Of a stretch of 64,000 nt of DNA, positions 16,871 through 55,017 are shown piece by piece. Location of the stretch: positions 13,409-77,408 of the forward strand of contig DATENM010000129.1 of assembly GCA_035275065.1 (NCBI GenBank). The letters are read 5' to 3'. The notes under the pieces are model-generated. The model did not search any database. It had not been told where the DNA came from and saw only the letters and a list, made by a program, of their open reading frames with translations. The DNA is from Blastocatellia bacterium (GTDB taxonomy: Bacteria > Acidobacteriota > Blastocatellia > UBA7656). The position numbers were made by a program, and so were the translations under genes. Every line of letters begins with the position of its first letter. The stretch's first letter is position 1.

Positions 16871-17135
16871 GTGGATTCCTCTCGCTTGCCCGCTATTCGC
16901 GCCGTCTGAATCAGGGTAGGCTTGCCGGGCGAGACTGGGGCACCGGCCCAACAGGCCGATGGCCTGCCGCCGAAACGGTCGCGGTCGGCACGGGTGGTCT
17001 GACTGTCAATGTCGGCCCGCCCGTGCCCTGCTCCCGTGAGTCAAACGGCGTGAGCCAGGGCCGGACACGTTACAGCCCCGTAGGGCGGCCCCGATGCGCC
17101 CCACAGTCTCGCGCGGGGCCGGTGGCGTGCCGCCT

Positions 17136-17603: not shown

Positions 17604-17614
17604 GTCTCTCCCTC

Positions 17615-20098: not shown

Positions 20099-20168
20099 TG
20101 CGCTCTCTCTCGTCGGAGGTCAGGGCGCGGGCTTTGCGCCCGCGCCGGATGTCGGACACGATTCCGCT

Positions 20169-22595: not shown

Positions 22596-22697
22596 GGGGT
22601 TCTCCGCTGAAACTGGAATTGAAGATTCGAGCGACCTCGGCCCGCCGTGCGCCGCCACGGCCAGAACAACCGGGCTTTGCGAGCCGGCGCGGTCAGC

Positions 22698-23300: not shown

Positions 23301-23436
23301 ACTCCCTCCTTAACAACAAATCCGTCTTCAGGCGACTGGTCTGTGTTCTTCTGCCGGCGATTGGCTCGGGCAGGCCGACGCCCGCGCCGGCCAGATTCCC
23401 GGCAATGGCAGGTCGCACGCGACGTGCGCCGCCGGC

Positions 23437-24039: not shown

Positions 24040-24144
24040 CTTTTCAACCTCCGTAATTGAGATGTTCATCTGGTGGCTCCAGGCGATGGAGCCGTGATCA
24101 GTCGTTTGCGCGCCGTGCGGCTCGGCGCGCGGCGCGGCGGGCGG

Positions 24145-25854: not shown

Positions 25855-25966
25855 CAATTAAGCCCTTTACGGTCTGGCGCGGCGGCGCGCCGCCATGACT
25901 CAAGGAGGGTTGAAGCGCAGAAAAGGCGGGCCACCCAGGGCGCGCCGCTCCGCTAGAGACTGCCGT

Positions 25967-27034: not shown

Positions 27035-27096
27035 AACGAAGTCCCTCGTTTCTGCCCGGTGGGGCGGCAAGGCGGCACCCGTGCGGCGGTGATCGT

Positions 27097-31284: not shown

Positions 31285-31336
31285 AAAGGTTCTCTGAATG
31301 GGCAGACGATGGGCGGCCTTCGTTTCTGCATCACCG

Positions 31337-32515: not shown

Positions 32516-32700
32516 AAGATGGTCAGGGAATCTGGGTCCGCGTGGGAACTGCGCCCCGCGCAATCAAGCGCGACGCCGGGGCTCCAGGCGCGCGCCGAGT
32601 CAGGACTCAATGGGCCGGCGGTCGGCGACGGCCTCGGCGAAGCCGTTGCGCGCCTGGTCATCATTGGTGTGCGAAAGGAAGTTGAGGGCCAGCCGGCGAC

Positions 32701-32791
32701 AGGCTACCGCATGTTGCACCGCCTCGCGTGCCGCTTTGCGTTTCGCGTTTCAGCCCTATCAAAGGTGAACAGGCTACCGCATGTTGCACCG
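32701..32791. repeat. Imperfect direct repeat: 21-bp core AGGCTACCGCATGTTGCACCG twice, 70 bp apart, each followed by a related ~11 bp tail
   Basis: Read directly at ~32701-32721 and ~32771-32791. It is adjacent to the IS630 remnant. Confidence 0.6.
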
Positions 32792-33000
32792 TCTTGTGTG
32801 CCTGCCTTAAAGGGCTATGTATGGATGCTGACCGGGCGATACGGCCTGGGCGTCCGCCCGCAGCCGCGACTGAAGGGCCTGGTCCAGCGGCAATGAGCCG
32901 ACCTTTACGATCACTCTGCCGCCAAAGAGAAAATAGCCAATCGCGAGTCGGAAGTCTTGAAGCCTACATCAATTTCCATTCAAAGTTTTTTAAACCTTCT

Positions 33001-33495
33001 TCATGCGTCTTTATCGCGACGCCGGGCAGGGTCGGGCCCGCTCGCGTGGCCTGCGGCATTTTGCTTTCGCGCCGATTTCGAGAGAAATCGGCTGAGTCCG
33101 TGCCGCCGGAGGCGCGCGGAGATTTGCTGCTGCGACAGGCGGACGCCGTACTCTGCAAGGACCTTTTCAGCCAGGGCCTTCAGCGTCCAGCGGCGGCCAT
33201 CCGGGCGGCCTTCTTTGATGGCAGTCAGCAGCGCCGCCTCCTGCTCAGGGTTCAACTTTGCGGTGCGTCCGCCCGTATGCTTGTACTTTAGCGCTTCAGG
33301 CCCGGCAAGGTTGAATTGTTTGATCCAAGTGCGTACGGTTTTTGGCGAGCGGCCCAGAATGCGGGCGATTTCGGTCGGGGCCATCCCCTGGCCGCGTAAG
33401 TAGATAGACTTCAGGCGCTGGCGCGTCCTGCGGTCGGTCGCTTGCGAGCAGAGTTGCTCAAGGGCAGTGAGATCGTAGCGGTCTAGTCGTTTCAT
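33001..33495 (-). mobile_element. IS630/Tc1-family transposase N-terminal HTH fragment (remnant; no DDE catalytic domain)
   Basis: APTEIARILGRSPKTVRTWIKQFNLAGPEALKYKHTGGRTAKLNPEQEAALLTAIKEGRPDGRRWTLKAL is the typical IS630 ORF1 winged-HTH region. The ORF ends after 164 aa with no DDE domain downstream. Confidence 0.6.
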
Positions 33496-33933: not shown

Positions 33934-35721
33934 ATGCCAGGAGTATCTATGGTAAAGGCGGCGATTGAGTTTATCTACATAAAACAGATCTACCGATTCG
34001 GCCCGTTCACCCTCGACACCGGACAGCGCCTGCTGACGCGCGACGGTGGAGTCGTGCCGCTCACTCATAAAGCTTTTGAAACGCTCGCGCTGCTAGTTCA
34101 ACACAATGGCCGCGTTCTTCAAAAAGAAGAGATGATGAAGAGCATCTGGCCCGACAGCTTTGTCGAAGAGGCCACGCTGGCACAGAATGTATTCATCCTC
34201 AGAAAGGTTCTGGGCGAAACCCCGCTCGGGACGCGTTACATCGAGACCGTGCCGAAGTACGGCTACCGCTTTGTCGCCGAGGTCGAAGAGGTCGCGCCGA
34301 GTCCCGGCGGACAGGTGACCGAAGCCCGAAACGGCAGCCGGACGGCCAAGTCTGTCGCCGTCCTGCCCTTCAAGGTGCTGACCAGCGACACCGGCAGCGA
34401 GTATTTCGGCATCGGCATGGCCGACGCCCTGATCACCCGTTTGAGCAACATTGAAGAGGTCACCGTCCGCCCGAGCAGCGCCATTTTGAAATACGACCGG
34501 CCGGATGTTGACCTCTGCGCCGCCGGCAGCGAGTTGAAGGTCCAGTTACTTCTGGACGGCATCATCCAGCGTTTCGGCGACCGCATTCGTGTCACAGTCC
34601 AACTGGTCAACACAGAAGACGGCGCGCCCCTGTGGGCGGGCAAGTTTGACGAGAAGGTCACCGACATCTTCGCCATTCAGGACATCATATCGGGGTTGGT
34701 TGTCGAAGCCCTGACCCTTAAGCTGACCAGCGCCCAACGGGTGCGGCTGACCAAGCACCACACCAAGAATTCGGAAGCTTATCGCTACTACCTCAAGGGC
34801 CGCTATCTTTGGAGCAAGTGGACGAAAGAGGGATTCAACAAAGGGATCGCCCTGTTCGAGCATGCCATCAAACTAGAGCCTGATTACGCCTTGCCTTATG
34901 CCGGCATCGCCGACACTTATATTTCCATGTGCTTCTATGGGCACATGCGCTCTTACGAGGCAATGACGAAAGTCAAAACCAAGGCCAGAAAAGCGTTGCA
35001 GCTCGACGACCAACTGGCCGAGGCGCGCTTGCCGCTGGCGGCTGCCCTATTCTTTTATGACTGGGACTGGGCGGGTGCCGAAGAAGAATTTAAGCGCGCC
35101 ATCCAAGCCAACCCGAATTACGCCGCCGCGCACCAGTCATACGGCCTGTACCTGATCGCCATGAGCCGCTTCGACGAAGCTCTGGCGAGTATGCACAGGG
35201 CGCAGGAAATCGACCCGGTTTCCCCGCTCATCAAGACCACAATCGGCTTCCCCTACTACTACTCCGGCCAATACGAGCAGGCCATCAGGCAGTACCACGA
35301 AGCGCTGGAGGAAGACCCGTCCTTCGGCCTGACCCGTGTGGCGCTGGCCGATGTCTACACGCGATTGGGGAGCTATGAGCAGGCCATCGAGAGTTACGAG
35401 CAGGGGCTGGCGATGTGGGAAGAAAAATCGGTCCTGCCATACCTGGGTCATGTTTACGGCTTGTCAAACCGGCGGCAGCAGGCTCTCGACGTCCTCAATA
35501 AGCTGAAGCGGCTGTCCGGCCAGGAGTATATTTCGCCCTTCTCTATGGCGGTCGTTTGCGCCGGCCTCGGTGAGGCCGACGAGATGTTCGACTGGCTTGA
35601 AAAGGCTTACGAGGAGCGTTCCAACAAGCTCGTCTTTCTCGACGTTCAACCGGTCTTTTACCCGTTTCGCGGCGACGCGCGCTTCATCGACCTGCTGCGG
35701 CGCATCGGGTATGAGCCTTGA
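33934..35721 (+). CDS. CadC/OmpR-type winged-helix DNA-binding regulator with TPR repeats
   Basis: N-terminal trans_reg_C-like region (FGPFTLDTGQRLLTRDGGVVPLTHKAFETLALLVQHNGRVLQKEEMMKSIWPDSFVEEATLAQNVFILRKVLGE), then a TolB-N-like segment SVAVLPFKVLTSD, then TPR-like repeats (AIQANPNYAAAHQSYGLYLIAMSRFDEALASMHRAQEIDP...). Confidence 0.65.
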   Translation: MPGVSMVKAAIEFIYIKQIYRFGPFTLDTGQRLLTRDGGVVPLTHKAFETLALLVQHNGRVLQKEEMMKSIWPDSFVEEATLAQNVFILRKVLGETPLGTRYIETVPKYGYRFVAEVEEVAPSPGGQVTEARNGSRTAKSVAVLPFKVLTSDTGSEYFGIGMADALITRLSNIEEVTVRPSSAILKYDRPDVDLCAAGSELKVQLLLDGIIQRFGDRIRVTVQLVNTEDGAPLWAGKFDEKVTDIFAIQDIISGLVVEALTLKLTSAQRVRLTKHHTKNSEAYRYYLKGRYLWSKWTKEGFNKGIALFEHAIKLEPDYALPYAGIADTYISMCFYGHMRSYEAMTKVKTKARKALQLDDQLAEARLPLAAALFFYDWDWAGAEEEFKRAIQANPNYAAAHQSYGLYLIAMSRFDEALASMHRAQEIDPVSPLIKTTIGFPYYYSGQYEQAIRQYHEALEEDPSFGLTRVALADVYTRLGSYEQAIESYEQGLAMWEEKSVLPYLGHVYGLSNRRQQALDVLNKLKRLSGQEYISPFSMAVVCAGLGEADEMFDWLEKAYEERSNKLVFLDVQPVFYPFRGDARFIDLLRRIGYEP

Positions 35722-35729
35722 GCAATGGC

Positions 35730-36512
35730 TCAGAGGGGCTGTGCCAGCCGCATGAGTTCTTCAGACAGCGCCTTCAAGACCTCGGTTTCGGCGCTGTGAA
35801 TAAAGAAGTGGTCGCCGCCGAACAGGCGCAGCGCGAATCGCCCGGTCGTCTCTTCCCGCCATGCGTCCAGGTCTTCGCCCGTCACTTGCTGGTCGTCAAG
35901 TCCGCCGAAGGCGCTGATCGCACAATCCAGCGGCGGCTCTGGCTCATAGCAATAGCTCGCACACAGCGCCAGGTCGGCCTTTAGCGCCGGCAGCATTAAT
36001 TGCACGAGCGCCGCCATGTCCGGCGTCAACCGGCTCATCTGGTTGAGACGTTGCACCTCGTCGAGAAACTGAAGCGGCTGCTGATTCTGTACCGAGTCAG
36101 GCCAGCGCAGGCGACGCGGCGCGCCCGCCGCCGAGATGAACAACTGGGCCGGTCGCAGGCCATAAGCCCTGCGGAGGTGTCGGGCAAGTTCAAAACAGAT
36201 CAACCCGCCCATGCTGTGCCCCCAGAAGGCGGCGGGGCGATCTAAATAAGGGAGCAATGGACGCTCAAGCGCCTGCACCAACTGCGACAAGCGGTCAAAG
36301 GGCGTCTCCTGGAGGCGGCGCTCCCGCCCGGGCAGATGCACCAGACATAGTTCGACCTGATCAGGCAAGCGGCTCGCCCATCTGTAATATACGTTACTTC
36401 CTCCGCCCGCGTAGGGGAAGCAGAACAAGCGCAGCGCGGCGGCCGGGTTTGGCTTCGGGAAGCTAATCCAGGCGTGGGAAACCGATCCTTCTGTCCTATT
36501 GAAGAATGTCAT
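35730..36512 (-). CDS. Type II thioesterase (editing TEII)
   Basis: CFPYAGGGSNVYYRW, GHSMGGLICFELA (GxSxG), C-terminal GGDHFF. The track ORF (391 aa) carries a spurious Arg/Pro-rich N-terminal extension. The real start is ATG 36512 (MTFFNRTEG), confirmed on the sequence. Confidence 0.8.
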   Translation of the reverse strand: MTFFNRTEGSVSHAWISFPKPNPAAALRLFCFPYAGGGSNVYYRWASRLPDQVELCLVHLPGRERRLQETPFDRLSQLVQALERPLLPYLDRPAAFWGHSMGGLICFELARHLRRAYGLRPAQLFISAAGAPRRLRWPDSVQNQQPLQFLDEVQRLNQMSRLTPDMAALVQLMLPALKADLALCASYCYEPEPPLDCAISAFGGLDDQQVTGEDLDAWREETTGRFALRLFGGDHFFIHSAETEVLKALSEELMRLAQPL

Positions 36513-36589
36513 AAAACCTACACCGACATGGTTGGGCGCTGCGCCGCCGCTCTTCACGTCAGGGACGGGCGTCGTCCGGCTGGCGCGTG

Positions 36590-38020
36590 TCAAACGGCCA
36601 GTGGCGGCATATTCATAATCCGACAGTCGAGGTCTGCAAGCATCACCTCGATGAGCTTCTGGTAGCCGGCGGCCATCTGAGTTATCTCCTCTTGGTCGAA
36701 TAAGCCGCTGTCGTATTCGATCCTGCCTTCGATGACCCGCTCCGTTTCTCTCAGGACAAGGGCCAGATGGCCATGACATGCGCCGGTCTCCGGCTCTTCT
36801 TCGAGGATCTTCAGGTCGCCGGCCTGGTACGTCAATGCTTCGGCATCTTCCATAGCGAAGGTCACATCGAGGGGGCAATCCACCGCGGGGTCGGCGACAA
36901 CCCATTCGCGGGGGATTTCCTGGTGCTCAAAGGCTTCGATCAGGCTCTCCTTCAGCCTGCGAAATATGACGCGAAAGCTGGGATTGCCGCTCAGGTCGAG
37001 CTTGATCAGCAGGAGGTTGGAGAGCGGCCCGACCAGGGATCGCAGTTCGGTGCGGTTGCGGTTCGCGACCATCGTGCCGACGGCCACCTCTTCCTGCCCG
37101 CTGTAGCGGCTGAGCAGCACCTGCCAGCCGGTGAGGAGGATCATGTAGGGAGTCAGGCCCTCGCGGCGGCCCGTCCGTCGAACATGCCGGCTCGCCGCCT
37201 CGCCGAGGTTCACTTTATGCCGCTTTACTGACCCGCTCACCGCCTCTCGACCGCCGCGCGCGCTCAAGCGCCCGTGCGGCAATCCCCCTGCCGGTTGTTG
37301 CCGCCAATACTCAAGGTCCAGATCGAAGTCGCCGGCCTCGAAGCGGCTCCTCTGCCACATCGCAAAATCGCCGTAGCCGACCTCCAGTTCGTTCAAGCTG
37401 CAAGGGACCCCCGCCGTGATCGATTCGTATGATCGGCTCAGTTCATCCACCAGGATCTTCTTCGACCAGTCGTCGCAGATGATCTGATGCAGGGTCAGCA
37501 TCAACAATTGCTCATGCGAGCTCAACGCGATGAGGCGGCTGCTGAACAGCGGCAGTCGCTCAAGGGCAAAGACCATGTCGGCCTGCTCGCCGCACAGCCG
37601 CTCGCAGTTAGTGACCTGCGCGGAGGCCGGCAGGCGGCTTAAATCGGCGAGGCTGACTTCCAGGTTCACAGACGCCGCGGCCTGCTGAACTAGAAGGCCG
37701 TCGCTCTCGACAAACCTCGTGCGCAGAAGTTCATGCCGCCTGACCAGGCTGTTGAGGGCCTCGTCCAGGGCCGTGACATTGAGAGACCCTGAGAGGCGAA
37801 GCCTTACCACTTCATTCTGGCCGATGCGGCGCGGGTCAGCATGCCAGGCTTTCCAGAGGCGCTCCTGCGCCGGCGTCAGCCGGCAGGGTTCAGCCGCGCT
37901 CCGGTTCGGAATCGGCAGCCGGGGAGGCAGGGCGATCCCACTGTCCCTGAGCAATTGTTCAAACAGCCGCTGTTTTTCAACCGAGAACGGTTGTATCTTG
38001 CTTTTAGAAGAGTCTTTCAT
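36590..38020 (-). CDS. Stand-alone condensation-domain-like protein with HQxxxDD in place of HHxxxDG
   Basis: C1/C2 motifs (LTPAQERLWKAW, RRHELLRTRF), TLHQIICDDWS at aa 179-185, and a C4-like YGDFAMWQ. No A or T domain is present. Start at ATG 38020 (TTG 38023 in the track). Confidence 0.75.
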   Translation of the reverse strand: MKDSSKSKIQPFSVEKQRLFEQLLRDSGIALPPRLPIPNRSAAEPCRLTPAQERLWKAWHADPRRIGQNEVVRLRLSGSLNVTALDEALNSLVRRHELLRTRFVESDGLLVQQAAASVNLEVSLADLSRLPASAQVTNCERLCGEQADMVFALERLPLFSSRLIALSSHEQLLMLTLHQIICDDWSKKILVDELSRSYESITAGVPCSLNELEVGYGDFAMWQRSRFEAGDFDLDLEYWRQQPAGGLPHGRLSARGGREAVSGSVKRHKVNLGEAASRHVRRTGRREGLTPYMILLTGWQVLLSRYSGQEEVAVGTMVANRNRTELRSLVGPLSNLLLIKLDLSGNPSFRVIFRRLKESLIEAFEHQEIPREWVVADPAVDCPLDVTFAMEDAEALTYQAGDLKILEEEPETGACHGHLALVLRETERVIEGRIEYDSGLFDQEEITQMAAGYQKLIEVMLADLDCRIMNMPPLAV

Positions 38021-38115
38021 CAACCAAATCAGCGGGGCATCTGATTTCAGACCATCAACAAATGGGCGAGGGAGAGTGGTCCGTTATTACTTCGATTAGC
38101 GAATCAATCGCCGGC

Positions 38116-41100
38116 TTAGCTCGGCGAATTCAGAGGCTGCGTTAAACAACCCGAATCCCGCTGCTCCAGAATCGCGTTCGTGTCCCGGTCAGACAGTTGC
38201 TCGACCTGTAAGAAGGTCCAGGCGATCTCCTCGACAATCTCACTTCCTCCCCAGAGATCCGACAAGACTTTGACGACGCCGCTAACCGTCGGCGCGTCGA
38301 ACAGGGCGCGAACCGGAACCTCAACCCGGAAAATCTCGCGCAGTTGCAAGACGACCTGGCTAGCCAGCAACGAATGGCCGCCGAGAGTAAAGAAGTCGCT
38401 GTTGATACCCACCTTGTCAATACACAGGACATCTTCCCATATCCTTGCCACCAGTTCCTCGGCTGGTGTACGCGCCGGAACAAATTCCTCTGTCGTCTCG
38501 ACAGCCGGCCCACCACTCAAGGCGAGCGCCGCCCGGTCAACCTTGCCATTCGCCGTCAGCGGCAACCTGTCCATGACTAAGTATGCCGAAGGGAGCATAT
38601 AGTCAGGCAGCCTTTCTTCTAAGTGGGCGCGCAAGCTCTCGGCGGTGAGCCGGTGCTGCGGGTCGGCGGCGACGTAGGCCAGCAGGCGTCGCTGGCCGGG
38701 GCTGCCTTCTCTGGTAACCACCACCGCCTCGCGCACCGCCGGGTGGCAAGCCAGTATGGCCTCTATCTCGCCCATCTCTACTCGAAACCCGCGAATCTTC
38801 ACCTGGTGGTCGGCGCGACCGATAAATTCGATATTCCCATCTTCCAGGTAACGCGCCAAGTCGCCTGTCTTGTACAAGCGCCCGCCAGGCCGCGGGCTGT
38901 AGGGGTCCGGCACGAAACGCTCCGCCGTGAAGTCCGGGCGATTCAGGTATCCCCGCGCCAGGGCGATGCCACCGATATAAAGCTCTCCGAGCGCGCCCGT
39001 GGGTACAGGGCCGAGCAGTTGGTCCAGCAGATACATACGGGCATTGGCTATGGGCCTGCCGATGCAAGGGCGTGCCGCCCACGAGTCGGGCGCGCCTTGC
39101 AGCGACAGCGCCGTCACCACATGGCTTTCGGACGGGCCATAGTGGTTATGTAGCGTGCACGAACTAAAGTCTTCAAAGAAGGCGACGACGGGCTGGGTGA
39201 TTTGCAACTGCTCGCCGGTCGTGATGACTTCCCTCAGGCATCTGAACAATTGTTTCCGATAGCGGTGTTCTTCGGCAAGCTGTTGCAGCACGACCACCGG
39301 CAGGACCATTTTCTCAATTTCGTGGCTGGCCAGAAAGCCGGCCAGTCGCGGGATGTCCTGGCGGAACGCCTCAGGGGCGATAAACAAGGTCCCGCCCGAC
39401 ACCCAGGTGGCAAACATCTCGTAAAAGCTGACGTCGAAGCTCGGCGACGCGAACTGTAAGGTCCTCGCCTTTGGCGATAACTCGCCCGTGTGCCATCGGA
39501 TCAGGTTAGCCAGGACGCCCTGCGATAAGCTCACTCCCTTCGGCCTTCCGGTCGAGCCCGATGTGTAGATCACGTAAGCCAGGTCATCAGCCGTGGCCGG
39601 ATTGATGGGACCGGCGTCGCACTGGCCGTTGGCGGCCTCTTGTTCCGCCTCCAGGCAGACGACGGTCGCGCCGCTATCGGGCAAACGCTCAAGCAGATGG
39701 GCCTCGGTCAGTAAGACGGGCGCGCCCGCCTCTGTCAGCATAAAATGCAAGCGCTCGGTCGGATAGCTCGGGTCCAGGGGCAGATAAGCGCCGCCGGCTT
39801 TCAGTGTGGCAAGCACGCCGATGCACATCTTCGGCGAGCGTTCAACGCACAGGCCGACCAGCGCCCCCGGCTTGACCCCGAGCCGCCGCAGGTCGCCGGC
39901 CAGAAGGTTAGCCCGGCGGTTCAAATCGCGGTAGGTGAGTTGCTCGTCGCCATAGACGACCGCAATGGCTTCGGGCGTTCTCGCCGCCTGCCCTTCAAAC
40001 ATCTGCGACAGGTTCTGGTCAGCCGGGTAAGCCAGGTCGGTGTCGTTCCACTCGGTCAGCAGCCTGCGCTGCTCAGCCTCAGTCAGCACGGGCAGTTCAC
40101 TCAACCGGCGATCAGGGTCGGCGAGCGCCGCCGCCAGCAGCCGTTGATAAGCCTCGGCCATGCGCCTGATTTTCGGCTCGTCGAACAGGTCTGTGCTGTA
40201 ATGGATGTGGCCGGTGAATCGCCCGCCGCTCTCTTGTATGACCATCATCAGGTCGTACTTGGCGGTCCCCATGTCGATCTTTTCTTCGCTGACGGTCAGG
40301 CCGCTTAACCCTGCCTGCGCCGTCAACCCTTGCTCCATGACAAACATCACTTCGACCAGCGGCCTGCGGCTGACGTCGCGGCCGACGGCCAGCTCGGCCA
40401 CCAGCTTTTCATAAGGCAGCTCCTGATGCTTGTAGGCGCCGACCGCCGCCTCTTTTACCCTCGCCAGCATTTGCCTGAAAGTCGGATTTCCCGTCAGGTC
40501 GCCCTTGATGATCAGCGTGTTAACCATCAGGCCGACGATGCTTTCCAACTCGGCGCGCCCCCGGTTGGCGGCGACGCTGCCGACGGCCACTTTATCCTGG
40601 GCACAGTAACGTCCGAGCAACACCTGCCACGCGGCCAGCAGCGCCATGTATACGGTGACGCCGCTGGACTGGCTCAACGCTTTGACGCCATGACCGACCG
40701 CCGGACTCAGCTCGAACCTCCAGGCCGCGCCGCAATAGCTCGGCACAGGCGGCCTGGGGCGGTCGCCGGGCATATCCATAGACGGCAGCGAGCCGCCTAG
40801 CTGCTGCCTCCAATAGTCCATTTCGGAGTCCAGGTCGCCCCGGTTAATCCGCTCCTTTTGCCACGCTGCGAAATCGGCATAGTGCAGGTCCGGCTCGGTC
40901 AGAGGCGACTCGCCGCCACGGCCATAAGTCTCGTACAAGCGGCGCAGCTCATGGATGAGTAACCCTTTCGACCACCCGTCACAGATGATGTGGTGCAGGC
41001 TAAGCACCAGCAGATGCTCTGCCGGTTCGAGCTTGACCAGGACGGCCCTGATCAGGCGCGGCCGGCTAAGGTCGAAGCGCCGGCAGGCCAGCCGCCGCGC

Positions 41101-41598
41101 CTGTTCGCGCGCCACTGCATCACGGCCTGACCGGGCCACCCGGCACAGATCAACTACGGGAAGGGGGAGATGCCCCTCGTCCGATACGCGCTGGTAAGGC
41201 TGCCCCTCGACGACTTCAAAGGAGGTTCTGAGCACCTCATGGCGGCGTACCAGCTCATTGAGGGAGTGTTGTAGCGCCGGAACGTTTAACGTCCCGACCA
41301 GGCGAAGCGCGATGGCCTCGTTGTAGAGCGCCGTATCCGACGCCAGCTGGTCCATGAACCACAGGCGCTCTTGCGCGGGCGCGAGCACGCACAGCCCCGC
41401 CGTGGTTTGACGGCGCTGGGAAGCTTCCGTCTCTAAGCAAGCCAGGGAAGGGTCCAGCTCTTCCCTGCTTGGGAGCTCAGGCCCGCGCCGCGCCGGCGCG
41501 ACGGCTCTTTCAGAAGATGGATGAGACCGCCGCCGCCTGGCTGCCGTCCCTTTACCTTCCCGGCCCGGATGGGTTGATGAGAGTGCGAATGCGATCAT
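38116..41598 (-). CDS. NRPS elongation module C-A-T with ~60 aa C-terminal docking tail
   Basis: LAPAQERLWFMDQL, HHIICDGWS, YTSGSTGRPKGV, YKTGDLARYLEDGNIEFIGRADHQVKIRGFRVEMGEIE, LPDYMLPSAYLVMDRLPLTANGKVDR, FFTLGGHSLLASQ. Start chosen at ATG 41598 (RBS GAGGGGGG), which overlaps the upstream gene end by ~47 nt. The track start at 41748 overlaps more. Confidence 0.8.
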   Translation of the reverse strand: MIAFALSSTHPGREGKGTAARRRRSHPSSERAVAPARRGPELPSREELDPSLACLETEASQRRQTTAGLCVLAPAQERLWFMDQLASDTALYNEAIALRLVGTLNVPALQHSLNELVRRHEVLRTSFEVVEGQPYQRVSDEGHLPLPVVDLCRVARSGRDAVAREQARRLACRRFDLSRPRLIRAVLVKLEPAEHLLVLSLHHIICDGWSKGLLIHELRRLYETYGRGGESPLTEPDLHYADFAAWQKERINRGDLDSEMDYWRQQLGGSLPSMDMPGDRPRPPVPSYCGAAWRFELSPAVGHGVKALSQSSGVTVYMALLAAWQVLLGRYCAQDKVAVGSVAANRGRAELESIVGLMVNTLIIKGDLTGNPTFRQMLARVKEAAVGAYKHQELPYEKLVAELAVGRDVSRRPLVEVMFVMEQGLTAQAGLSGLTVSEEKIDMGTAKYDLMMVIQESGGRFTGHIHYSTDLFDEPKIRRMAEAYQRLLAAALADPDRRLSELPVLTEAEQRRLLTEWNDTDLAYPADQNLSQMFEGQAARTPEAIAVVYGDEQLTYRDLNRRANLLAGDLRRLGVKPGALVGLCVERSPKMCIGVLATLKAGGAYLPLDPSYPTERLHFMLTEAGAPVLLTEAHLLERLPDSGATVVCLEAEQEAANGQCDAGPINPATADDLAYVIYTSGSTGRPKGVSLSQGVLANLIRWHTGELSPKARTLQFASPSFDVSFYEMFATWVSGGTLFIAPEAFRQDIPRLAGFLASHEIEKMVLPVVVLQQLAEEHRYRKQLFRCLREVITTGEQLQITQPVVAFFEDFSSCTLHNHYGPSESHVVTALSLQGAPDSWAARPCIGRPIANARMYLLDQLLGPVPTGALGELYIGGIALARGYLNRPDFTAERFVPDPYSPRPGGRLYKTGDLARYLEDGNIEFIGRADHQVKIRGFRVEMGEIEAILACHPAVREAVVVTREGSPGQRRLLAYVAADPQHRLTAESLRAHLEERLPDYMLPSAYLVMDRLPLTANGKVDRAALALSGGPAVETTEEFVPARTPAEELVARIWEDVLCIDKVGINSDFFTLGGHSLLASQVVLQLREIFRVEVPVRALFDAPTVSGVVKVLSDLWGGSEIVEEIAWTFLQVEQLSDRDTNAILEQRDSGCLTQPLNSPS

Positions 41599-44500
41599 TG
41601 TTTCCCCCCTCGCTGTTGACCGCGACATTCGATGCCCGTTTGCGACAGGTTCGGATGTCAAGGTCCAGCGCCCTTGGCTCGTACCACATTCCATCCTGAA
41701 AAGCCCTCGCCAGGCTCCTGGGTGATGGGTAGCTGTAGAACTCCTCAATGCCCGGTCGGCAGTTGAACTCTTTTTCGAGCCGGGTCGCGATCCTGGTTAT
41801 GTCAATGGAGTTCGCGCCCAGTTCGAGCAGGTTGGTGTCCGCGCCTACGTGATCTAGCTTGAGAACGTCGGCAATGCATTCGGCAATTCGCTCCTCGACC
41901 GACATGCCTCTTTGCGCCGGCGGGTCGGCGGGCAGGCTCGCTGTCCTGGCCTGGCCGGCCAGCGCCTTGCGATCAACCTTGCCATTGGCCGTGAGCGGCA
42001 GGCTGTCGCTGATGACGAAGGCCGAAGGTATCATATAGGCGGGCAATTTCTTCCTGAGAAAGCGGCGCAACTCATCAACGGTCGGGGCCGAGCCGGGGTC
42101 GGCAGCCAGGTAAGCGACCAGCCGCTTGTTTTCGCGCGCCCCCTCGGCGACCACCGCCTTCGAGCGCACGCCGGGGTAATTGCCCAGCGCCGCTTCGATC
42201 TCTCCGAGTTCGATGCGATAGCCCTGAATCTTCACCTGAGCGTCTACGCGGCCAAGAAATTCGATAGTTCCGTCAGGAAGATAACGGCCAAGGTCGCCCG
42301 TCCGGTAGAGCCGCTCGCCGGTGCGCGGGTGGGTGATAAAACTCGCCTCGGTGAGCCGGTCATCCCGCCAATAGCCCAGGGCCAGGCCGACGCCGCCTAT
42401 ATACAAGTCGCCGGCAACCCAGACCGGGCGCGGCTCCAGCGCCTGGTTCAAAACGTGGAAACGCTGATTAGCTAGTGGCCGCCCATAGGGAATGCTTGGC
42501 AGGTCGGTCGGCTGGCCGTCGGCCGGGTGGAAGATGGACCACACGGACGCTTCGGTCGCGCCCCCAAGGCTAATCACTTGAGCAGCAGGGGCAAGCGCCT
42601 TGATCCTGTCAGGCAGGGTGACGGAAATCCAGTCGCCGCTCAAGAGCACGAGGCGCAATGACCCGGCGGGCCGGCCGCCGCGGCCAGCCGCGCAGGCCAC
42701 CAGCATCTCCATCACGGCCGGCGCAGAATTCCAAACCGTCACCTCCTCGCGGTCAATCAGGTCGAGCCAACGCGCCGCGTCACGGCTCGCAGAGGCAGCC
42801 GGCATGACGATAGTGCCGCCCGCCGCCAACGTCCCGAAAATATCATAGACGGAAAGATCGAAGCTCAGGTTTGAAACCGCCAGGACCCGATCATCTGGCC
42901 CTATCCCGAAACGCCTGTTGATGTCGAGCAAGGTGTTTACGGCCCCCTTATGATCGATCATCACGCCCTTGGGCAATCCCGTCGAGCCGGACGTGTAGAT
43001 GACGTAAGCGAGATCATCGGGCTGCTGCGCCGGTTCGGGCGGCGCGCCGGCCTCGCCGGGCGGCTCAAAATCGACCGCCAATCGCTGTAGCTCGCGGGGC
43101 CATTCGAGGGCTTCGTCAACCCACGACTGGGTTAGCACAATAGAGACTTCGCCGTGGCTGAGCAGGTGCCAGAGGCGTTCCTGCGGTAAGCCCGGGTCAA
43201 GCGGCAGGTAGGCCGCCCCGGCTTGTAGGATCGCCAGAACGGCGGCGACCTGTTCCACCCCCTTTTCCATAACCACCGCGACCAGCGTGTTGGGGCGAGC
43301 GCCCATCAGCCTGAGCTTGCGGCTCAGGCCGTTGACTCTCGCTTGCAGTTCTTCATAAGTGAGCGAGCCGCTCGCCGCGACGACGGCGGTCTGCTGCGGT
43401 CGCCTTTTGGCCTGCTCCTGGAATAAGCCCTGCAACAGGGCCGGCGCGGCGGCCACTTCAGTCTGATTGATGGCGTCGCGCTGGCGGCGCTGAGCGGGCG
43501 GCAGGAGACTGCCGGACGGTTGCCGCCAGGCGCGCGGGTCATCACTCAGCCGCCGCAATAACGAGCAATAGGTCTCGAACATGTCATCGAGCAGGCGCTC
43601 TGGGAACAGGCTTTCGACCGCATCCCAGTTGAAGACCAGGTTGCCGCCCTCTTCGAGCACTTGATGATCGAGCCAGACCTGCGGCGTCTGGGTGATGCCG
43701 TACACAACGTCACCCATCCATAACGTCTTCTCCGTCCGCTTGCCGGCCTGGTGGGGCGACAACAGGCTGGTGAAGACGATGGGCAGGGCCGCGCCCGGCG
43801 TGCGCCCATGCGCCCGCGCCAGTTCGCGCAGAATTTCAACGCCGCTGACGAACCGGTGGTCGAGGTCTTCGAGCAGTTGCGCCTGCACGCGGCCAGCCCG
43901 CGCCGCGAACGAAATTCCCGACGCCGTGTCGACGGACAGCGGCACCAGCGACGTGAAATCGCCGATGATCTCTTGCACCTGCGGGTGCAGCGGCAAGCGG
44001 TTGAGCAGCGTCACGTTGAGCGTGAACTCGGGTTTTCTGCTCCAGGTCGCCAGCACGTCGGCAAAGGCCGTCAGGAGCGCGCCGGAAGGGGTCAGGCCGA
44101 GCTCGGCGGCATGGGCCTTGATTTGCGCCCACGCCCCGGCCTGCAACTGCCCCGTGCGCCGCACGAATCGGGGGCGGGCCTGCGAACCTGGGTTGTTGGC
44201 AAGCGGCAGGTCGGGCGCAGGCGGCAGGCTGGACAGACGCTTCGCCCAATACTGCTGCGATTGACGGTAAGACTCCGAATCCTTCAACTCGGCTTCCGCC
44301 ACGACGTAATCCCTGAATTGCAGGTCGAGTGGCGGCAGCGGCGCATCGAGGTCGGCGTAGAGTATCGCCCATTCCGAAAACAGAATCTGCAAGCTCCAAA
44401 CGTCGGCGATCAGTATGTCGAAGCTGAAGTGCAGGCGGACGCCGCCATCGTTGAGCCGCGAGGCACAAATCTCGAACAGCGGCCAGCGGTCGGACGGCAA

Positions 44501-45039
44501 CACCTGATGCGACATGCGGTGACGAACCGCCTCGAGCACGGCGGCAGCCTGCTCGGCCGTGTGCCGCCGCAAGTCGAGGACTTTGATCTCGTAACGCGGC
44601 ACCTGCTCTAGAACCTGCTGCCTGCCGTCCGCAAGTACGATGGCGCGCAGCATGTCGTGGCGCTCGATTAAACGCTGCAAAGCCAGTTCGAGCCGCGGCA
44701 GGTCAAGCTGCTCGGCCTGCACTTCGTAATACGCATGGCAACTGACGTTGCCCAACTCGACGGTGCCGCCGCGACCAATCCAGTAAGCCTGCTGAATGTC
44801 TGTCAGCGGGAAGGGCTCGTAGCGACGCCGCGGGTCGGGGATGGCAATGGGGAGCGCGCTGTCAGCGTCGGCCCGCTGAGCTTTTTCGAGCAACTCCATA
44901 ACCGCGGCCTTGTGCGCCGCCAGCTTGGCCTGTAGCTCGGGCGTGAGCACCCCCTTGGGGGCGCGGACGCGCAGATGTTCGCCGTCGCTCCACACCTCGG
45001 CGTTCTGCCGGATCAGGTCAGTCAGTACTTCAGACGCCA

Positions 45040-45043
<4 letters not shown>
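41552..45043 (-). CDS. NRPS heterocyclization module Cy-A(Cys-like)-T with N-terminal docking domain
   Basis: Cy motifs FPLTDIQQAYWIGR and FDILIADVWS (DxxxxDxxS). A domain: YTSGSTGLPKGV, SNLSFDLSVYDIFG (code begins D-L-Y as in Cys-activating domains), YRTGDLGRYLPDGTIEFLGRVDAQVKIQGYRIELGEIE, LPAYMIPSAFVISDSLPLTANGKVDR. T domain LLELGANSIDITRI. The start ATG overlaps the PKS stop (ATGA), RBS GGGAGGAA. Confidence 0.85.
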
Positions 45044-51561
<6,518 letters not shown>

Positions 51562-51711
51562 ATGTCATCACCAGGAATAAGGCTTCGACAACTCCGAGCA
51601 GGTTACCACCTGTGACGCCAGCCCTTGAGACGCCCAGCGGCTTAAGATAATGAGCCAAGCGGGACAAATTAAGGCATGCAGGTATATGAATCCTGAAGCC
51701 TGCTGTACCGT

Positions 51712-51741
51712 CCGGCGCTAGCTCCTCAAACCTAGCGCCGG
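51712..51741 (-). promoter_or_regulatory. Leader hairpin (10-bp perfect stem CCGGCGCTAG / CTAGCGCCGG, 10-nt loop) containing an ops-like GGCGCTAGGTTTG motif, 5' of the PKS gene
   Basis: Read directly. It lies ~40 nt downstream of the NusG-paralog stop and ~150 nt upstream of the PKS ATG. No U-tract follows on the mRNA strand, so it is not a canonical intrinsic terminator. Confidence 0.4.
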
Positions 51742-51779
51742 CTTAGGTTTCGCGATTTCGGTTCTCACGGTTCGAGTTT

Positions 51780-52322
51780 TCAGGCGTAGCAAACCGTATC
51801 GCTAACTTTGCGTAACATGCCGCGTTCGATGCGGACGCGGGCTCGGTAAAGAACAGTGTTCAGCAACACCTCGACGCGATCAGAATCCTTCATTTCCTTC
51901 TCAAAAACTCCGGTCAGGTTCTGGAAGACGCCCTCTTGAATTACCACCATATCGCCGGGCTTTATGCCGTCGCCGAGCTTAACGAAGCCATCTTTGCCGA
52001 TACGGGAGCGAACCAGAGCAATGATCTCCTCATCGACCTCGGTCGGGCCATCGCCAAATCCCACCAACCCCTGCACGCCTCTGGTGTAGCGGATTTTGTG
52101 GAATAACCGTTCGAGATTGAAACAAGCGAAGACGTAGCGTGAGAACAGCGGCTTAACCGTGTACCGGGGAAGACCGTTGAATGCGTTGTAGGAAACATCA
52201 CGGAACTGAGGTGAAAGCGTTTCGATATTCCAGGCGCGAAGATTGCTAATTGCCCGATCTTCTTGCTTCGGTTTGGTATGAATCAGGAACCAGGAGCGCT
52301 CGTCGTTGTCCAGATTACTCAT
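51780..52322 (-). CDS. NusG/RfaH-family paralog (LoaP/TaA/UpxY-like specialised transcription antiterminator)
   Basis: NGN domain WFLIHTKPKQEDRAISNLRAWNIETLSPQF...RYVFACF. KOW motif IKPGDMVVIQEGVFQNLTGVFEKE. Start at ATG 52322 (MSNLDNDE), preceded by GGAGG with a 6-nt spacer. The track's N-terminal extension is rejected. Confidence 0.75.
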   Translation of the reverse strand: MSNLDNDERSWFLIHTKPKQEDRAISNLRAWNIETLSPQFRDVSYNAFNGLPRYTVKPLFSRYVFACFNLERLFHKIRYTRGVQGLVGFGDGPTEVDEEIIALVRSRIGKDGFVKLGDGIKPGDMVVIQEGVFQNLTGVFEKEMKDSDRVEVLLNTVLYRARVRIERGMLRKVSDTVCYA

Positions 52323-52455
52323 AGCCATCCTCCAATTACACCGTCTGGGCTTGGCGCGTAGCCATATATCTTTAATCCGTCGGGAACCTGCGGATTTCAG
52401 TAGCTTCGTGCGCAGTGGAATACTACACAAGTGGGCTGAGTAAGTATTTATTAGC

Positions 52456-52475
52456 TCTTGAATTCTCTTTCAAGA
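52456..52475. promoter_or_regulatory. Inverted repeat TCTTGAA-N6-TTCAAGA in an AT-rich stretch ~135 bp upstream of the NusG-paralog start; candidate operator
   Basis: Read directly. It sits in a locally low-GC region (52440-52520) typical of promoter DNA in a high-GC genome. Confidence 0.3.
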
Positions 52476-52812
52476 ATTATTGAAAACCGTTTTAAAGTTT
52501 TTTTAATTCATCCCTGGAATGGCTCAGAGGGGCCGGGAAACGACAAGGGAAGACATGGATCGCCGCCGATAACCGGGCGGAGGCCTACGCCGGTCCACTG
52601 CCGACCATCAGCGCCGGCAACCCCCAACGCTGGAGGAATTTGCGAGGAAGTGCCGCCTGTTTCAGGAGGCGAAAAAGCGGCTCAGACTCTCATGATGACT
52701 GCACCTCAGCTCGGGGCTAGACCGGTCGACAGATGCGCCCCTCGGCCGCGGCTTGCGGCCCGCAGGCTGGGCAGCGGTCTTGCGCTTGACGCGGCGGTTG
52801 CCGGACAGGAAG

Positions 52813-55017
52813 TTAAGGGACGACCTCGAATGAAGTCTCGCGGGTCTGCGCCGCTTTGGACTGCGGATCTTTCACAGAGATTCGCAAGGTGTAATATCCG
52901 GGCGTGAGGCGCGATGACGGGACGCGCCCGCCGAATTCGACCGAGTCGGCTTCCTTAGCGAGTACGAGCGACGACAGCGGCTTCCATGTATCTTCAAACA
53001 CGACCTCTTCATCCTTCAGTATCTGCTCCTGAATCATTAGCCCCGCAGCGCTACGCTCGCCCAATCCCGCCTGGCGCGCCTTGCCGTAGTAGGCGAGGAC
53101 ATCGTCGCGCCGGAAGAGAAGGAGGCCGTTGCGCACGCGCGGCTGTGACACAGCCTGCTTGGCGGCTTCTGTCGCTTTGTCATCGGACGGCAACCTGGCG
53201 GTCGAGATGCTGCTCAGAATCAGCTTCCTCGATTTAAGATCGGGCACTTCAACCCAGGTCGAGGCCGTGCCCATCTTGCCGGTCTGCGAGTCGAACACGC
53301 CGACGCGTATCTGGTAGAGGCCGCGCTCCAGGCGCAGGCGTTTGGTATAGCGGTAGACGTCCTCCCGCGCGCGGTCCAGTTGCTCGCGCGACAGGCGTAT
53401 CTGTACGGCGTCCTGCAAGACGTTGGTTGTCCGCCCCGATGAATCGAGCACGCCGGTCAGCAAAGTAAAACTGGTGACGAAGCTCTGGCCTTGTTCTTTG
53501 TAGCCGAGATTACGGGCTGCGACGAAGACGTAAACCGACACCTGCGCGTCGTCGCTCGACAGCCAGAGGAAGTCTGCTGAAGCGTCTACCCCGATCTCTG
53601 TGGCGGCTAAAGGCTCACCCATTGTTTTGATCAAAGACTCACGCGGATCCGTCGGCAAGGCGGTCTTCTCTTTGAGAAGGTCGCTGGTCAAATAACCGCT
53701 CTGCGTTCGCACACGGTAATCTGGATGACCTTTGACGCGGACATTGATGGAGCGGAAGCTCTTCTTGTCTTTCGGCGCGGTCGGGTAATAAGCGAGCACG
53801 TAATAGAATCCGTTGTCGTCGAGCGCCTTGCCGAGCGCGCCTTTCAGGTCGTTGGTCGTCAGGAAGGCTTCGCCGCCGGTGCCTTTCGCCAGCCGCTCCA
53901 GGCCGGCCTCCACCTCGCGGTCGCCCGCCGCAAAGTAGCCGGGCAACAGGTGAGCGAGGTGCGGCTCGGACGGCACACTCGTCGTTACGTCGTACATCCT
54001 ATTGCCGTGCAGCCCTTTTGCATTGACCGCGTAGACGACGACGCCCGAGCGCGTGGCACGGCTGATCGCGGCGCGCAGGTCGTCTGAATCGGTCACGCCC
54101 GATTCGTCGAGCTGTGTGAAGCCGTCCGACAGCATTAAGACCATCCGCTGGCCGGGCATCTCGGCAATGCGCGCGGCGACCGCCTTCAGCACGGACAGCG
54201 TTTCCCGGCGCAGGTAGGTCGCTTCGACTGAAATCTGTCGGGCTCGCGATTTGGCGAGGTTGGTCACGAGGGACTCAAAGTGCGGGTCATCAGGAAGGTG
54301 CTCTTCCTGCCTGACGATACTCTTGGCCACTTCTATGGCGTTGGCGTCTTCGGCTTCGACCTTGGCCGCGAGGAAGGGCGTGTAGGCGCTGTCGGAGCGC
54401 GACGCCGGGAAGTTGCTCAGCCGGTTGATCGCTGCCCGCAGCACGCGCTTGTCTGAGGTGAACTGGCTGAACAGGCCCAACCCGCCGCCGGTGGCGACGA
54501 CCGCCGCCAGATCTTCGTCGCCGAGGCGTTCGTCAACGAACTTCAGCATATGCTGTTTGACCTGCATCATGCTCGCCGTCGTCATGTGCAGTGTGTCAAC
54601 GAAGAGGGCGACCGTGCGTTTCGGCCTCGCGGCAGGCGGCACTTGCCGGCGGCTCGCCGGCGACGCGCCGGGCGGGCTGGTGGCGAGCGCGCCGCTGATC
54701 TGTTCGGCGGTGAAGAAGCTGACGACCTGCTTTCGGCCATCCTCTGTGATCTCGAAATCGTCTTTGGTGAGGTCTGTGATCGGCTTGCCCTGTTTGTCGG
54801 TGACCACGGCGCGAAGCTCGATCAGGTCGGTCTTCAGGCGGATTGGCTGGTCTTGTGACTCTACTTTATTGGCCGCGGACTGCGGCGGCCGCGCGGCCAG
54901 CGCCGCCTGTGTGAACAGCATCACCACCGAGGCGACGCACCAAAGGCGGCGGCGTTGTGCGCTTCTCTTTTTGAGGGGAGCCTTAGCCCGGATGGCGGGC
55001 GAATTCTGATTGTTCAT
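52813..55017 (-). CDS. Secreted VWA-like domain protein (degenerate MIDAS)
   Basis: N-terminal signal-like segment LWCVASVVMLFTQAALAA. VWA-like beta-alpha pattern RTVALFVDTLHMTTASMMQVKQHMLKFVDERLGDEDLAAVVATGG. A large C-terminal region is unassigned. Confidence 0.45.
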   Translation of the reverse strand: MNNQNSPAIRAKAPLKKRSAQRRRLWCVASVVMLFTQAALAARPPQSAANKVESQDQPIRLKTDLIELRAVVTDKQGKPITDLTKDDFEITEDGRKQVVSFFTAEQISGALATSPPGASPASRRQVPPAARPKRTVALFVDTLHMTTASMMQVKQHMLKFVDERLGDEDLAAVVATGGGLGLFSQFTSDKRVLRAAINRLSNFPASRSDSAYTPFLAAKVEAEDANAIEVAKSIVRQEEHLPDDPHFESLVTNLAKSRARQISVEATYLRRETLSVLKAVAARIAEMPGQRMVLMLSDGFTQLDESGVTDSDDLRAAISRATRSGVVVYAVNAKGLHGNRMYDVTTSVPSEPHLAHLLPGYFAAGDREVEAGLERLAKGTGGEAFLTTNDLKGALGKALDDNGFYYVLAYYPTAPKDKKSFRSINVRVKGHPDYRVRTQSGYLTSDLLKEKTALPTDPRESLIKTMGEPLAATEIGVDASADFLWLSSDDAQVSVYVFVAARNLGYKEQGQSFVTSFTLLTGVLDSSGRTTNVLQDAVQIRLSREQLDRAREDVYRYTKRLRLERGLYQIRVGVFDSQTGKMGTASTWVEVPDLKSRKLILSSISTARLPSDDKATEAAKQAVSQPRVRNGLLLFRRDDVLAYYGKARQAGLGERSAAGLMIQEQILKDEEVVFEDTWKPLSSLVLAKEADSVEFGGRVPSSRLTPGYYTLRISVKDPQSKAAQTRETSFEVVP

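Follow-up and report, generated by a model that had tools for sequence, protein, structure and literature searches.

A 64-kb stretch of the genome of a Blastocatellia bacterium (contig DATENM010000129.1; called the window below, at its whole length of 64,000 nucleotides) carries the gene of a NusG paralog directly ahead of a long polyketide synthase (PKS)-nonribosomal peptide synthetase (NRPS) operon. What does a NusG paralog do at the head of such an operon, and by which signal would it reach the RNA polymerase that transcribes it? Our comparison of the locus with its relatives suggests that the paralog, an RfaH-like protein, probably loads at an ops-type signal in the leader between its own gene and the PKS gene and lets the PKS-NRPS operon be transcribed to its end. 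The gene, the leader, a hairpin and an inverted repeat discussed below are all on the minus strand. The features needed to follow the argument are these:

52322..51780, minus strand: RfaH-like specialized NusG paralog with NGN and KOW domains, 180 amino acids plus stop (Pfam NGN, NCBIfam, AlphaFold2 (AF2) and fold match)
51621..51594, minus strand: extended ops-like element CTGGCGTCACAGGTGGTAACCTGCTCGG, the sole strongly conserved leader block in seven orthologs
51620..51616, minus strand: upstream TGGCG box of the ops-like element
51610..51599, minus strand: ops-like core GGTGGTAACCTG, predicted pause at T 51600/G 51599
51561..45040, minus strand: type I PKS, KS-AT-DH-ER-KR-ACP, 2173 amino acids, first assembly-line gene (Pfam)
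35730..45061, minus strand: rest of the presumed target operon, namely an NRPS (TubC dock-C-A-T), an NRPS (C-A-T), a free C domain and a thioesterase (Pfam)

The paralog gene starts at an ATG (52322) conserved among the orthologs and ends with the stop codon TGA at 51782..51780. An earlier note on this DNA, made from the sequence alone, had rightly described an NGN-KOW open reading frame (ORF) co-oriented with the first assembly-line gene and directly ahead of it, with a leader between the two. The sizes that it gave are to be revised: the conserved start yields 180 amino acids, as in P0001, P0002, and P0004, and not 181; the leader (51779..51562) measures 218 nt and not 219; and the presumed operon, from the PKS gene to the end of the thioesterase gene at 35730, covers ~15.8 kb and not ~20 kb.

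We considered the possibility that this ORF is simply the host's housekeeping NusG, with which it shares the NGN and KOW architecture (Pfam NusG NGN, 2.6e-13). This architecture, together with a length of ~160-180 amino acids, is also that of RfaH. Among the NCBIfam models, those for RfaH gave the best scores with the window paralog (86.4 bits with TIGR01955 and 73.8 bits with NF006534), followed by UpxY (NF033644, 42.7 bits), NusG (TIGR00922, 36.4 bits), and LoaP (NF033641, 35.8 bits). None of these models reached its curated cut-off (144.5, 124, 100, 135.7, and 125 bits, respectively), and UpxY and LoaP were rejected as identities of the paralog on these scores. The RfaH models ranked first in all 38 family members tested, and a profile of the family, compared with PDB sequences, matched E. 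coli RfaH with 78 bits, a NusG-RNA complex chain (8f5g) with 58 bits, and E. coli NusG with 42 bits. These results bear out the idea of the earlier note that the protein is a dedicated, non-housekeeping paralog; they do not bear out its likening to LoaP-type antiterminators, for which the leader also offered no conserved RNA hairpin or terminator.

The AF2 model, calculated from a 38-sequence alignment, has an NGN domain with pLDDT above 90 and a C-terminal domain (CTD) predicted as β-stranded, KOW-like and β-barrel-like, with pLDDT 60-78. The closest fold to this model was 8phk_P, which is RfaH in its fully recruited, ops-paused complex. The alignment with RfaH spans residues 11-164. When the roles of RfaH residues were taken from published work (PMC5995543, PMC7593976), the equivalents of RfaH R16, T72, R73, G74, and V75, which are R25, T82, R83, G84, and V85, were found to be invariant or nearly so in the family. 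Since it scores best on the RfaH models, remains below their cut-offs, and keeps part of the contact residues, the paralog is, as judged from its sequence, an RfaH-like specialized NusG paralog and not an RfaH equivalog.

The genomic setting also speaks against a housekeeping NusG. There is no secE or rplK context, and the neighbors of the gene are unrelated; apart from the PKS gene, the Pfam scan found around it a protein of unknown function, a tricorn-like protease, and a lipase. A protein search returned 127 relatives, almost all metagenomic, the named ones coming from Acidobacteriota or Pyrinomonadaceae. The closest protein is 91% identical to the window paralog, and the best one among species-representative genomes is 55% identical. 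The latter genomes encode at least 433 relatives, as a scan of them showed, and the 80 highest-ranking ones belong nearly all to metagenome-assembled genomes (MAGs) of Blastocatellia and Pyrinomonadaceae, with a few Verrucomicrobiota; at least six MAGs contain two family members each.

Six independent metagenomic loci (L093, L096, L090, L094, L095, and L097; L090 is also present as L081 and L091) share the gene order of the window, with 60-89% protein identity. The paralog is followed in them by a leader of ~190-205 nt, a PKS of 2176-2187 amino acids, and an NRPS with a TubC dock, and the orthologous PKS stands directly after the paralog in L090, L093, L094, L095, and L097. More generally, among loci with at least 8 kb of downstream sequence, co-directional KS, AT, KR, C, or A domains were encoded within 10 kb downstream of the paralog in 32 of 56, whereas any such domain was found upstream in only 6 of 58. 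The paralog thus appears to be dedicated to its cluster, as the earlier note had proposed. The family is large in Acidobacteriota, mainly in Blastocatellia and Pyrinomonadaceae, adjoins PKS/NRPS clusters, and is often multicopy within a genome. Because of the strict synteny with biosynthetic gene clusters (BGCs) in the six loci and the bias of PKS/NRPS genes to the downstream side, together with the several copies per MAG and the NusG score of 36.4 bits versus 135.7, we give almost no credence to the housekeeping explanation.

By which signal would such a protein be recruited? Only one block of the leader, TTGGCGTCAnAGGTGGTAACCTGCCCG, is strongly conserved among the seven orthologs, and it is the block found at 51621..51594 in the window. 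Its core GGTGGTAACCTG, which ends 38 nt ahead of the PKS start codon, is as long as E. coli ops (GGCGGTAGCGTG) and differs from the ops consensus GGCGGTAGnnTG only at positions 3 and 8, which are complementary in the window core as they are in the consensus (C:G changed to T:A). The window element scores 20.2 bits with a 28-nt position weight matrix and is the sole window match to GGYGGTARNNTG. An equivalent element, TGCGGTAGCTYTG, is present across ~90 related loci, mostly of Blastocatellia and Pyrinomonadaceae (family consensus yTGGCGnnAnnTGCGGTAGCTyTGyC), and the family core GCGGTAGC is identical to G2-C9 of E. coli ops. Locus L009 has two copies of GGCGGTAGCCTG between the paralog and the PKS, and L076 has one, both matching the E. 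coli consensus; L072, from a Terriglobia MAG, contains the exact E. coli ops 12-mer. Tandem copies of the element were found in L009, in L044, and ahead of a second biosynthetic operon of the window (operon 2).

Within the core, G4, G5, and A7 are invariant in 65 aligned instances and T6 is kept in 57 of them (C or A in the other eight); in all seven sites of the window's clade, G5/T6 and the G4-A7 loop are invariant. A TGG(C/T)G box is conserved 10-12 nt upstream of the core, most family sites having one extra base before TG, and this box would fall in upstream duplex DNA, at about -20 from the predicted pause. The three sites of the window all keep the pause spacing G-10/Y-1/G+1, the site in the PKS leader reading G-10, T-1, G+1. 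Rfam gave no match in 51400-52900 and no JUMPstart match at the operon-2 sites; the sole JUMPstart match, below threshold (14.8 bits, E = 2.4), was at the exact ops site of L072.

The element is strongly associated with the paralog genes. The pattern G[CT]GGTA[GA]C, which had not been trained on these loci, occurred 39 times in 55 kb (600-nt windows after the paralog stops; 36 of 94 loci), a density of 0.71 per kb, compared with 0.060 per kb per strand elsewhere in 1.4 Mb, a 12-fold enrichment. With the 28-nt weight matrix, at a threshold of at least 16 bits, 62 hits were obtained on the strand of the paralog and 4 on the opposite strand. Of the 62, 35 follow the stop codon, 18 precede the start codon by no more than 400 nt, and 9 belong to other leaders; the gene itself contains none. 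The element thus immediately precedes or follows the paralog gene, in sense orientation throughout, and this conserved ops-like motif is likely to be the loading signal of the paralog.

In the published structure of the E. coli complex, the loop of ops comprises G4-A7, T6 is flipped into RfaH, and only G5 and T6 are read specifically (Zuber et al. 2018, PMC5995543); the C3:G8 pair has an architectural role in RfaH recruitment, which a flipped pair partly restores (PMC5995543). We masked matrix positions 2, 3, 8, and 9 and rescanned. In the 51 leader hits, pair 3:8 was C:G in 43, T:A in 7, and something else in 1, and pair 2:9 was G:C in 47, A:T in 3, and G·T in 1 (L097); Watson-Crick pairing was present in only 25 of 80 chance hits elsewhere. 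The two inner pairs were paired in 65/65 and 64/65 of the aligned instances, and RNAalifold, applied to the orthologous leaders, retained only the ops mini-stem with its GGUA loop (-6.4 kcal/mol). The stem of the element is thus kept by double substitution, C3:G8 to T3:A8 and G2:C9 to A2:T9.

These changes fit RNA equally well, and we considered the possibility that the element is read in the manner of LoaP, the paralog binding the nascent GGUA-loop hairpin and antitermination taking place at intrinsic, NusA-dependent terminators. LoaP is a known paralog linked to BGCs (PMC12691694), and the family profile matches the NusG-RNA complex chain mentioned above. Furthermore, the G·T pair of L097 would be G·U in RNA, and an outer pair, 13:24, beyond a mismatch, is A:U in 16 cases, G:C in 16, and G·U in 14. 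The resulting five-pair stem had a covariation score of 0.236, compared with 0.188 ± 0.018 after shuffling, a value reached in 2 of 500 shuffles, though sequence relatedness alone, without structure, may give a high score; the extended stem itself (GACAT with TGTC versus CAAAGT with CTYTGCC), suggestive by eye, was not significant and was rejected. Yet, the LoaP model was failed by a wide margin (35.8 bits versus 125), no terminator-like site was detected on the sense strand, and a larger RNA structure around the block was ruled out by swapped-flank chimeras (z = +0.7), by the minimum free energy after dinucleotide shuffling (z = -0.35 versus -0.50 for control segments), and by the RNAalifold result. 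Read-out as RNA therefore appears unlikely to us. The identity of the core with the DNA-read ops of E. coli, the pause spacing kept at the three window sites, and a protein closest to RfaH favor a read-out in the DNA mode, as for RfaH and UpxY.

It is even less probable, in our opinion, that the conserved 28-nt block is a promoter or the site of an unrelated regulator and that it accompanies the paralog merely through shared operon context. The block is oriented and placed upstream of genes as a promoter would be, its TGGCG box superficially resembles the -24 element of sigma-54 promoters, and the sigma-70 scan gave no promoter for the PKS gene. However, the sigma-54 reading of TGGCG...TGC fails because the family has GG-N8-GC where sigma-54 strictly has GG-N10-GC, and the window site has no GC at either position (GT/GG at -12). 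A promoter would have no use for compensatory changes that preserve a 2-bp stem, the core matches ops exactly and, like ops, occurs in tandem, and the position of the element after the paralog in 35 loci and before it in 18, always on the same strand, fits a transcribed signal.

A different part of the leader had been singled out in the earlier note, in which an ops-like motif was placed in a hairpin:

51741..51712, minus strand: 10-bp hairpin CCGGCGCTAG-gtttgaggag-CTAGCGCCGG, real but lineage-specific

As claimed, this hairpin has a perfect 10-bp stem (arms 51712-51721 and 51732-51741; 10-nt loop; I19), and its local fold is stable (z-score -2.98); it also lies in the leader on the sense strand and was considered as a recruitment site, either ops-like or a LoaP-type RNA hairpin. 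The motif, GGCGCTAGGTTTG at 51739..51727 on the minus strand, represents the 5' arm plus loop on the mRNA strand, and not the 3' arm plus loop; relative to ops, it has one mismatch and one extra base. Allowing one mismatch, GGCGCTAGNNNTG occurs 7 times in the window versus 7.2 expected, and the window has four further perfect 10-bp inverted repeats with separate arms, hairpin-type or near-palindromic, among them I16, I20, and I21. In a seven-leader alignment, the hairpin is carried by a 14-nt insertion that is missing from all six orthologous leaders, no copy of the 30-mer was found in the 98 loci fetched, and the hairpins that the orthologs form in the first 100 nt past the stop codon have other positions and other sequences. 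No T-tract follows the hairpin or its ortholog counterparts, and the terminator scan was empty on the sense strand, its single terminator-like site being on the wrong strand, inside the gene. The ortholog alignment, the search of the 98 loci, and the chance frequency thus rule it out as a conserved element, and the far better, conserved ops match lies 100 nt downstream; it is very unlikely that the paralog is recruited at this hairpin, which we regard as a lineage-specific stem and at most a generic RNA stabilizer or attenuator after the paralog ORF. The idea of the earlier note was therefore right and its element wrong: the ops-like site is elsewhere in the leader.

Another, semi-conserved stem is located in the same leader, at 51650..51700 on the minus strand (TTCATGC...GCATGA(A) in L093 and L096, GCAGG...CCTGC in the window); RNAalifold gave it no support on the orthologous leaders.

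Several observations weigh against a paralog that loads at the ops-like element. No core match was found within 600 nt after the stop codon in 58 of the 94 loci. The weight matrix was trained on downstream hits, which leaves the upstream, distal, and strand statistics as the only independent ones. The T:A pairs at 3:8 come from one clade and the A:T pairs at 2:9 from L094 and L095, which makes one or two independent compensatory events. The transcript has the same sequence, which makes read-out as DNA and as RNA indistinguishable here. On the side of the protein, both RfaH cut-offs were missed (TIGR01955 and NF006534, see above), the ops-contacting residues H20, R23, and Q24 of RfaH are replaced by N29 (an invariant N), A32, and W33, and K10, which is K19 in the window's clade, is variable across the wider family. 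RfaH-style autoinhibition, by an α-helical CTD that refolds to a β-barrel, makes ops obligatory in E. coli. Among the residues involved, I93, F130, and R138 are kept as I103, F142, and R151, whereas E48, which forms a salt bridge with R138 in RfaH, is replaced by K59. Because of this loss and of a CTD predicted, at moderate confidence, to be β-stranded, the paralog may lack this type of autoinhibition.

Taking these points into account, we consider it probable that the RfaH-like paralog acts at the ops-type signal, and its action might be as follows. Transcription would start at a conserved region upstream of the paralog gene, possibly under the control of a TTGA-N8-TCAA palindrome, and RNA polymerase would pass through the paralog gene into the 218-nt leader. 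There it would meet the ops-type signal GGTGGTAACCTG and presumably pause at the consensus G-10, T-1, G+1, while the non-template strand would fold into a mini-hairpin with G2:C9 and T3:A8 as stem and G4-G5-T6-A7 as loop. The NGN domain of the paralog would bind the paused complex through the equivalents of RfaH R16, T72-R73-G74-V75 and, in this clade, K10. Retained on the polymerase, the paralog would exclude NusG and Rho-dependent termination and suppress pausing, so that the ~16-kb PKS-NRPS operon would be read to its end. Pausing, binding, antitermination, and the promoter are all inferred in this scheme, which is built on the observed family affinity of the protein, on its synteny with PKS-NRPS genes, and on three observed properties of the element, namely conservation, bias in strand and position, and compensatory substitutions. 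The same paralog, or a sister of it, would probably also load at two GCGGTAGCCTG sites ahead of the second operon.

These two sites belong to the second biosynthetic operon of the window:

32765..32792, minus strand: operon-2 ops-like site 1, ACGGTGCAACATGCGGTAGCCTGTTCAC, with core GCGGTAGCCTG at 32780..32770; 23.7 bits with the weight matrix
32695..32722, minus strand: operon-2 ops-like site 2, GCGGTGCAACATGCGGTAGCCTGTCGCC, with core at 32710..32700, 70 nt after site 1; 22.7 bits with the weight matrix
5309..32563, minus strand: second biosynthetic gene block, ~27 kb (Pfam), downstream of both ops-like sites and presumed to be a single transcription unit

Both sites (32695..32792) lie within tandem copies of GGTGCAACATGCGGTAGCCTGT, which have the canonical ops-like core. 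The pattern GYGGTARCYTG has three matches in the 64-kb window versus 0.16 expected, all of them on the minus strand and in leaders. The block encodes a glycosyltransferase, an NRPS (C-A-T-TE), a luciferase-like oxygenase, an ABC exporter, an MbtH protein, an ankyrin protein, a penicillin amidase, two carbamoyltransferases, a FAAL-T-C protein, a HAD hydrolase, and an NRPS (C-A-T-C). No second NGN gene was detected in the window (hmmsearch --max, E <= 10), so that either the window paralog would act on operon 2 in trans or a paralog encoded elsewhere would do so. Between the two biosynthetic blocks, and divergent from operon 2, lies the gene of a 595-amino-acid regulator (33934..35721, plus strand) with an OmpR/PhoB-type Trans_reg_C domain and TPR repeats (SARP/BTAD-like), a candidate regulator at the level of initiation.

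The region upstream of the paralog gene contains the following features:

52495..52508, minus strand: A-tract upstream of the promoter-like block
52475..52456, minus strand: inverted repeat TCTTGAA-agagaa-TTCAAGA (7-6-7), read directly, in an AT-rich region; candidate operator or promoter-proximal site
52450..52420, minus strand: promoter-like block made of TAAATACTT (TAAAGACTT in orthologs), a gap of 16-17 nt, and TAGTAT; conserved alignment columns
52425..52420, minus strand: TAGTAT, -10-like, part of the promoter-like block
52333..52328, minus strand: Shine-Dalgarno sequence GGAGGA of the paralog gene, invariant in 7/7 orthologs, 5 nt ahead of the conserved ATG

The same succession was observed in the orthologs, namely an A-tract, TTGA-N8-TCAA, TAAAGACTT, and TAnTAT 16-17 nt further on. 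A simple scan for the sigma-70 consensus gave no promoter match in the region, and the conserved upstream block is a putative promoter. The inverted repeat reported in the earlier note (TCTTGAA/TTCAAGA) does exist, and its skeleton TTGA-N8-TCAA is found in 6/7 orthologous promoter regions, L097 having a different perfect palindrome (TTGATTT-GC-AAATCAA) at the same place. By itself the repeat would lack significance; because it is conserved, it is a fair candidate operator, though not more than a candidate. In a forced six-sequence alignment, which provides a lead only, the regions 32890..33010 and 52405..52520 (minus strand) have TTTAAA/A-tract, TTGA, AAGACTT, and TAnTnT in common, in an identical order; the two operons may share a type of promoter that departs from the sigma-70 consensus.

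Some of the surroundings of the paralogs deserve a description of their own. Directly upstream of the window paralog is a 734-amino-acid ORF (52813..55017, minus strand) without a Pfam match, weak relatives of which (24% identity) are encoded in L069 and L029, several kb away from the paralogs on their upstream side; as it also differs from the ORF that follows paralogs elsewhere, it was rejected as a recurrent partner. In 15 related loci, a peptidase of ~780 amino acids comes directly after the paralog (L003 10604-12934, L056 10693-13050, and 13 others), its M28 assignment being confirmed in L003 and L056, the two that were scanned. In three loci, an HSP90/HtpG homolog has this position (L001 10635-12593, L002, and L014). 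Several loci of the peptidase or HSP90 type have NRPS adenylation domains a few kb further on. In the window, the thioesterase ORF (35730..36905, minus strand) overlaps the preceding condensation-domain ORF (36590..38023, minus strand) by ~315 nt, and its first ~150 residues are arginine-rich and devoid of a domain; the true start is probably further downstream than that of the listed ORF. An IS21 IstB gene is present just upstream of the paralog in L090 (3767-4561) and L091. L095 has a phage-type integrase gene (8396-9325), and the window has a transposase-like ORF with HTH_32/HTH_29 domains just upstream of the operon-2 leader (33001..33495, minus strand). Mobile-element genes thus flank the clusters, and the paralog-PKS-NRPS cassette may move horizontally.

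How does this locus compare with known systems? It shares with E. coli RfaH/ops the best-scoring protein family, the family core GCGGTAGC, a window variant of the same length and pause spacing, a C3:G8 stem kept as T3:A8, a G4-A7 loop invariant in the window's clade, tandem sites, and a location in the leader of long and probably horizontally moving operons. It differs from it in that the paralog is acidobacterial and lies in cis ahead of its target, whereas RfaH is a separate cistron, in the missed cut-offs, in the replacement of H20, R23, Q24, and E48, in the predicted β-stranded CTD, and in the TGG(C/T)G box 10-12 nt upstream with, at most sites, the extra base before TG. The targets are also different: lipopolysaccharide, capsule, pilus, and toxin genes for RfaH, and presumably PKS/NRPS genes for the family described here.

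Monomorphic β-RfaH homologs have been described in a 2026 preprint (PMC13015549). Like the window paralog, they have a CTD predicted to be all-β, adjoin long target operons, and lack some ops-binding residues; unlike these homologs, which behaved independently of ops in E. coli reporters (PMC13015549), the window family keeps a strictly conserved ops-like element next to its genes, which argues that the element is still in use. TaA, the NusG-like activator of the TA polyketide operon in Myxococcus xanthus, is similarly a specialized NusG paralog whose gene accompanies a very long PKS operon; it belongs to a phylum other than Acidobacteriota, and the likeness noted here is one of arrangement. 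The mode of recruitment of cis-encoded NusG paralogs such as TaA has been stated to be unknown (PMC7593976, PMC7819879).

LoaP of Bacillus velezensis is encoded beside polyketide operons, and long biosynthetic operons are not read through without it; it needs a small leader RNA hairpin and antagonizes NusA at intrinsic terminators (PMC12691694). The window paralog fails the LoaP model, its leader has no conserved hairpin-terminator pair, and its signal looks like a DNA-type ops. In the Bacteroides UpxY/opsX systems, a genome has many paralogs, each specific to its locus and encoded first in the operon, and opsX is a multipartite signal of ~40 nt that combines a non-template hairpin with upstream duplex DNA (Saba 2024, PMC11685472), a determinant that the TGGCG box of the window element recalls. 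Here too there are differences: the UpxY model gives 42.7 bits versus a cut-off of 100, the window site comes after the paralog gene and not before it, and UpxY targets capsule operons. The second gene encodes the cognate UpxZ inhibitor in the UpxY systems and a PKS in the window, where no search aimed at UpxZ-like proteins was made. As judged from these comparisons, the system would work like RfaH/ops and, in the manner of TaA, LoaP, and UpxY, be encoded in front of its target.

The E. coli ops core is thus found, unchanged, in a distant phylum and attached to biosynthetic clusters. A full-text search covering 7.7 million PMC papers and 0.34 million preprints turned up none that connects Acidobacteria with RfaH and polyketides. 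Comparative genomics provides here a precise candidate recruitment signal of 12-28 nt, with natural compensatory variants, that is directly testable with a lux reporter or in vitro (for instance with single-stranded DNA or RNA of GGTGGTAAC, or with GCGGTAGC). Soil Acidobacteria have an abundance of unexpressed PKS/NRPS clusters, and heterologous expression of these operons of 16-27 kb may need co-expression of the cognate paralog and retention of the ops-bearing leader.

More tentatively, one may envisage an 'ops code' for secondary metabolism in Acidobacteria, in which the many RfaH-like paralogs of a genome would each act at their own extended ops variant; this is a possibility that we put forward with some doubt. 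Should it be true, variants in the stem (C3:G8 versus T3:A8), in the spacing, and in the TGGYG box would be orthogonal switches, acting at the level of elongation, for individual biosynthetic operons, and one paralog could serve unlinked operons in trans, as the canonical sites of operon 2 suggest. About 95% of RfaH proteins are proteobacterial (Wang et al., PMC7593976), and E. coli ops is read as a non-template-strand hairpin (Zuber 2018, PMC5995543). Under such a code, this recognition of ops in the non-template strand would be ancient or widely transferred, as opposed to the late invention of proteobacteria that has been proposed (PMC7593976).

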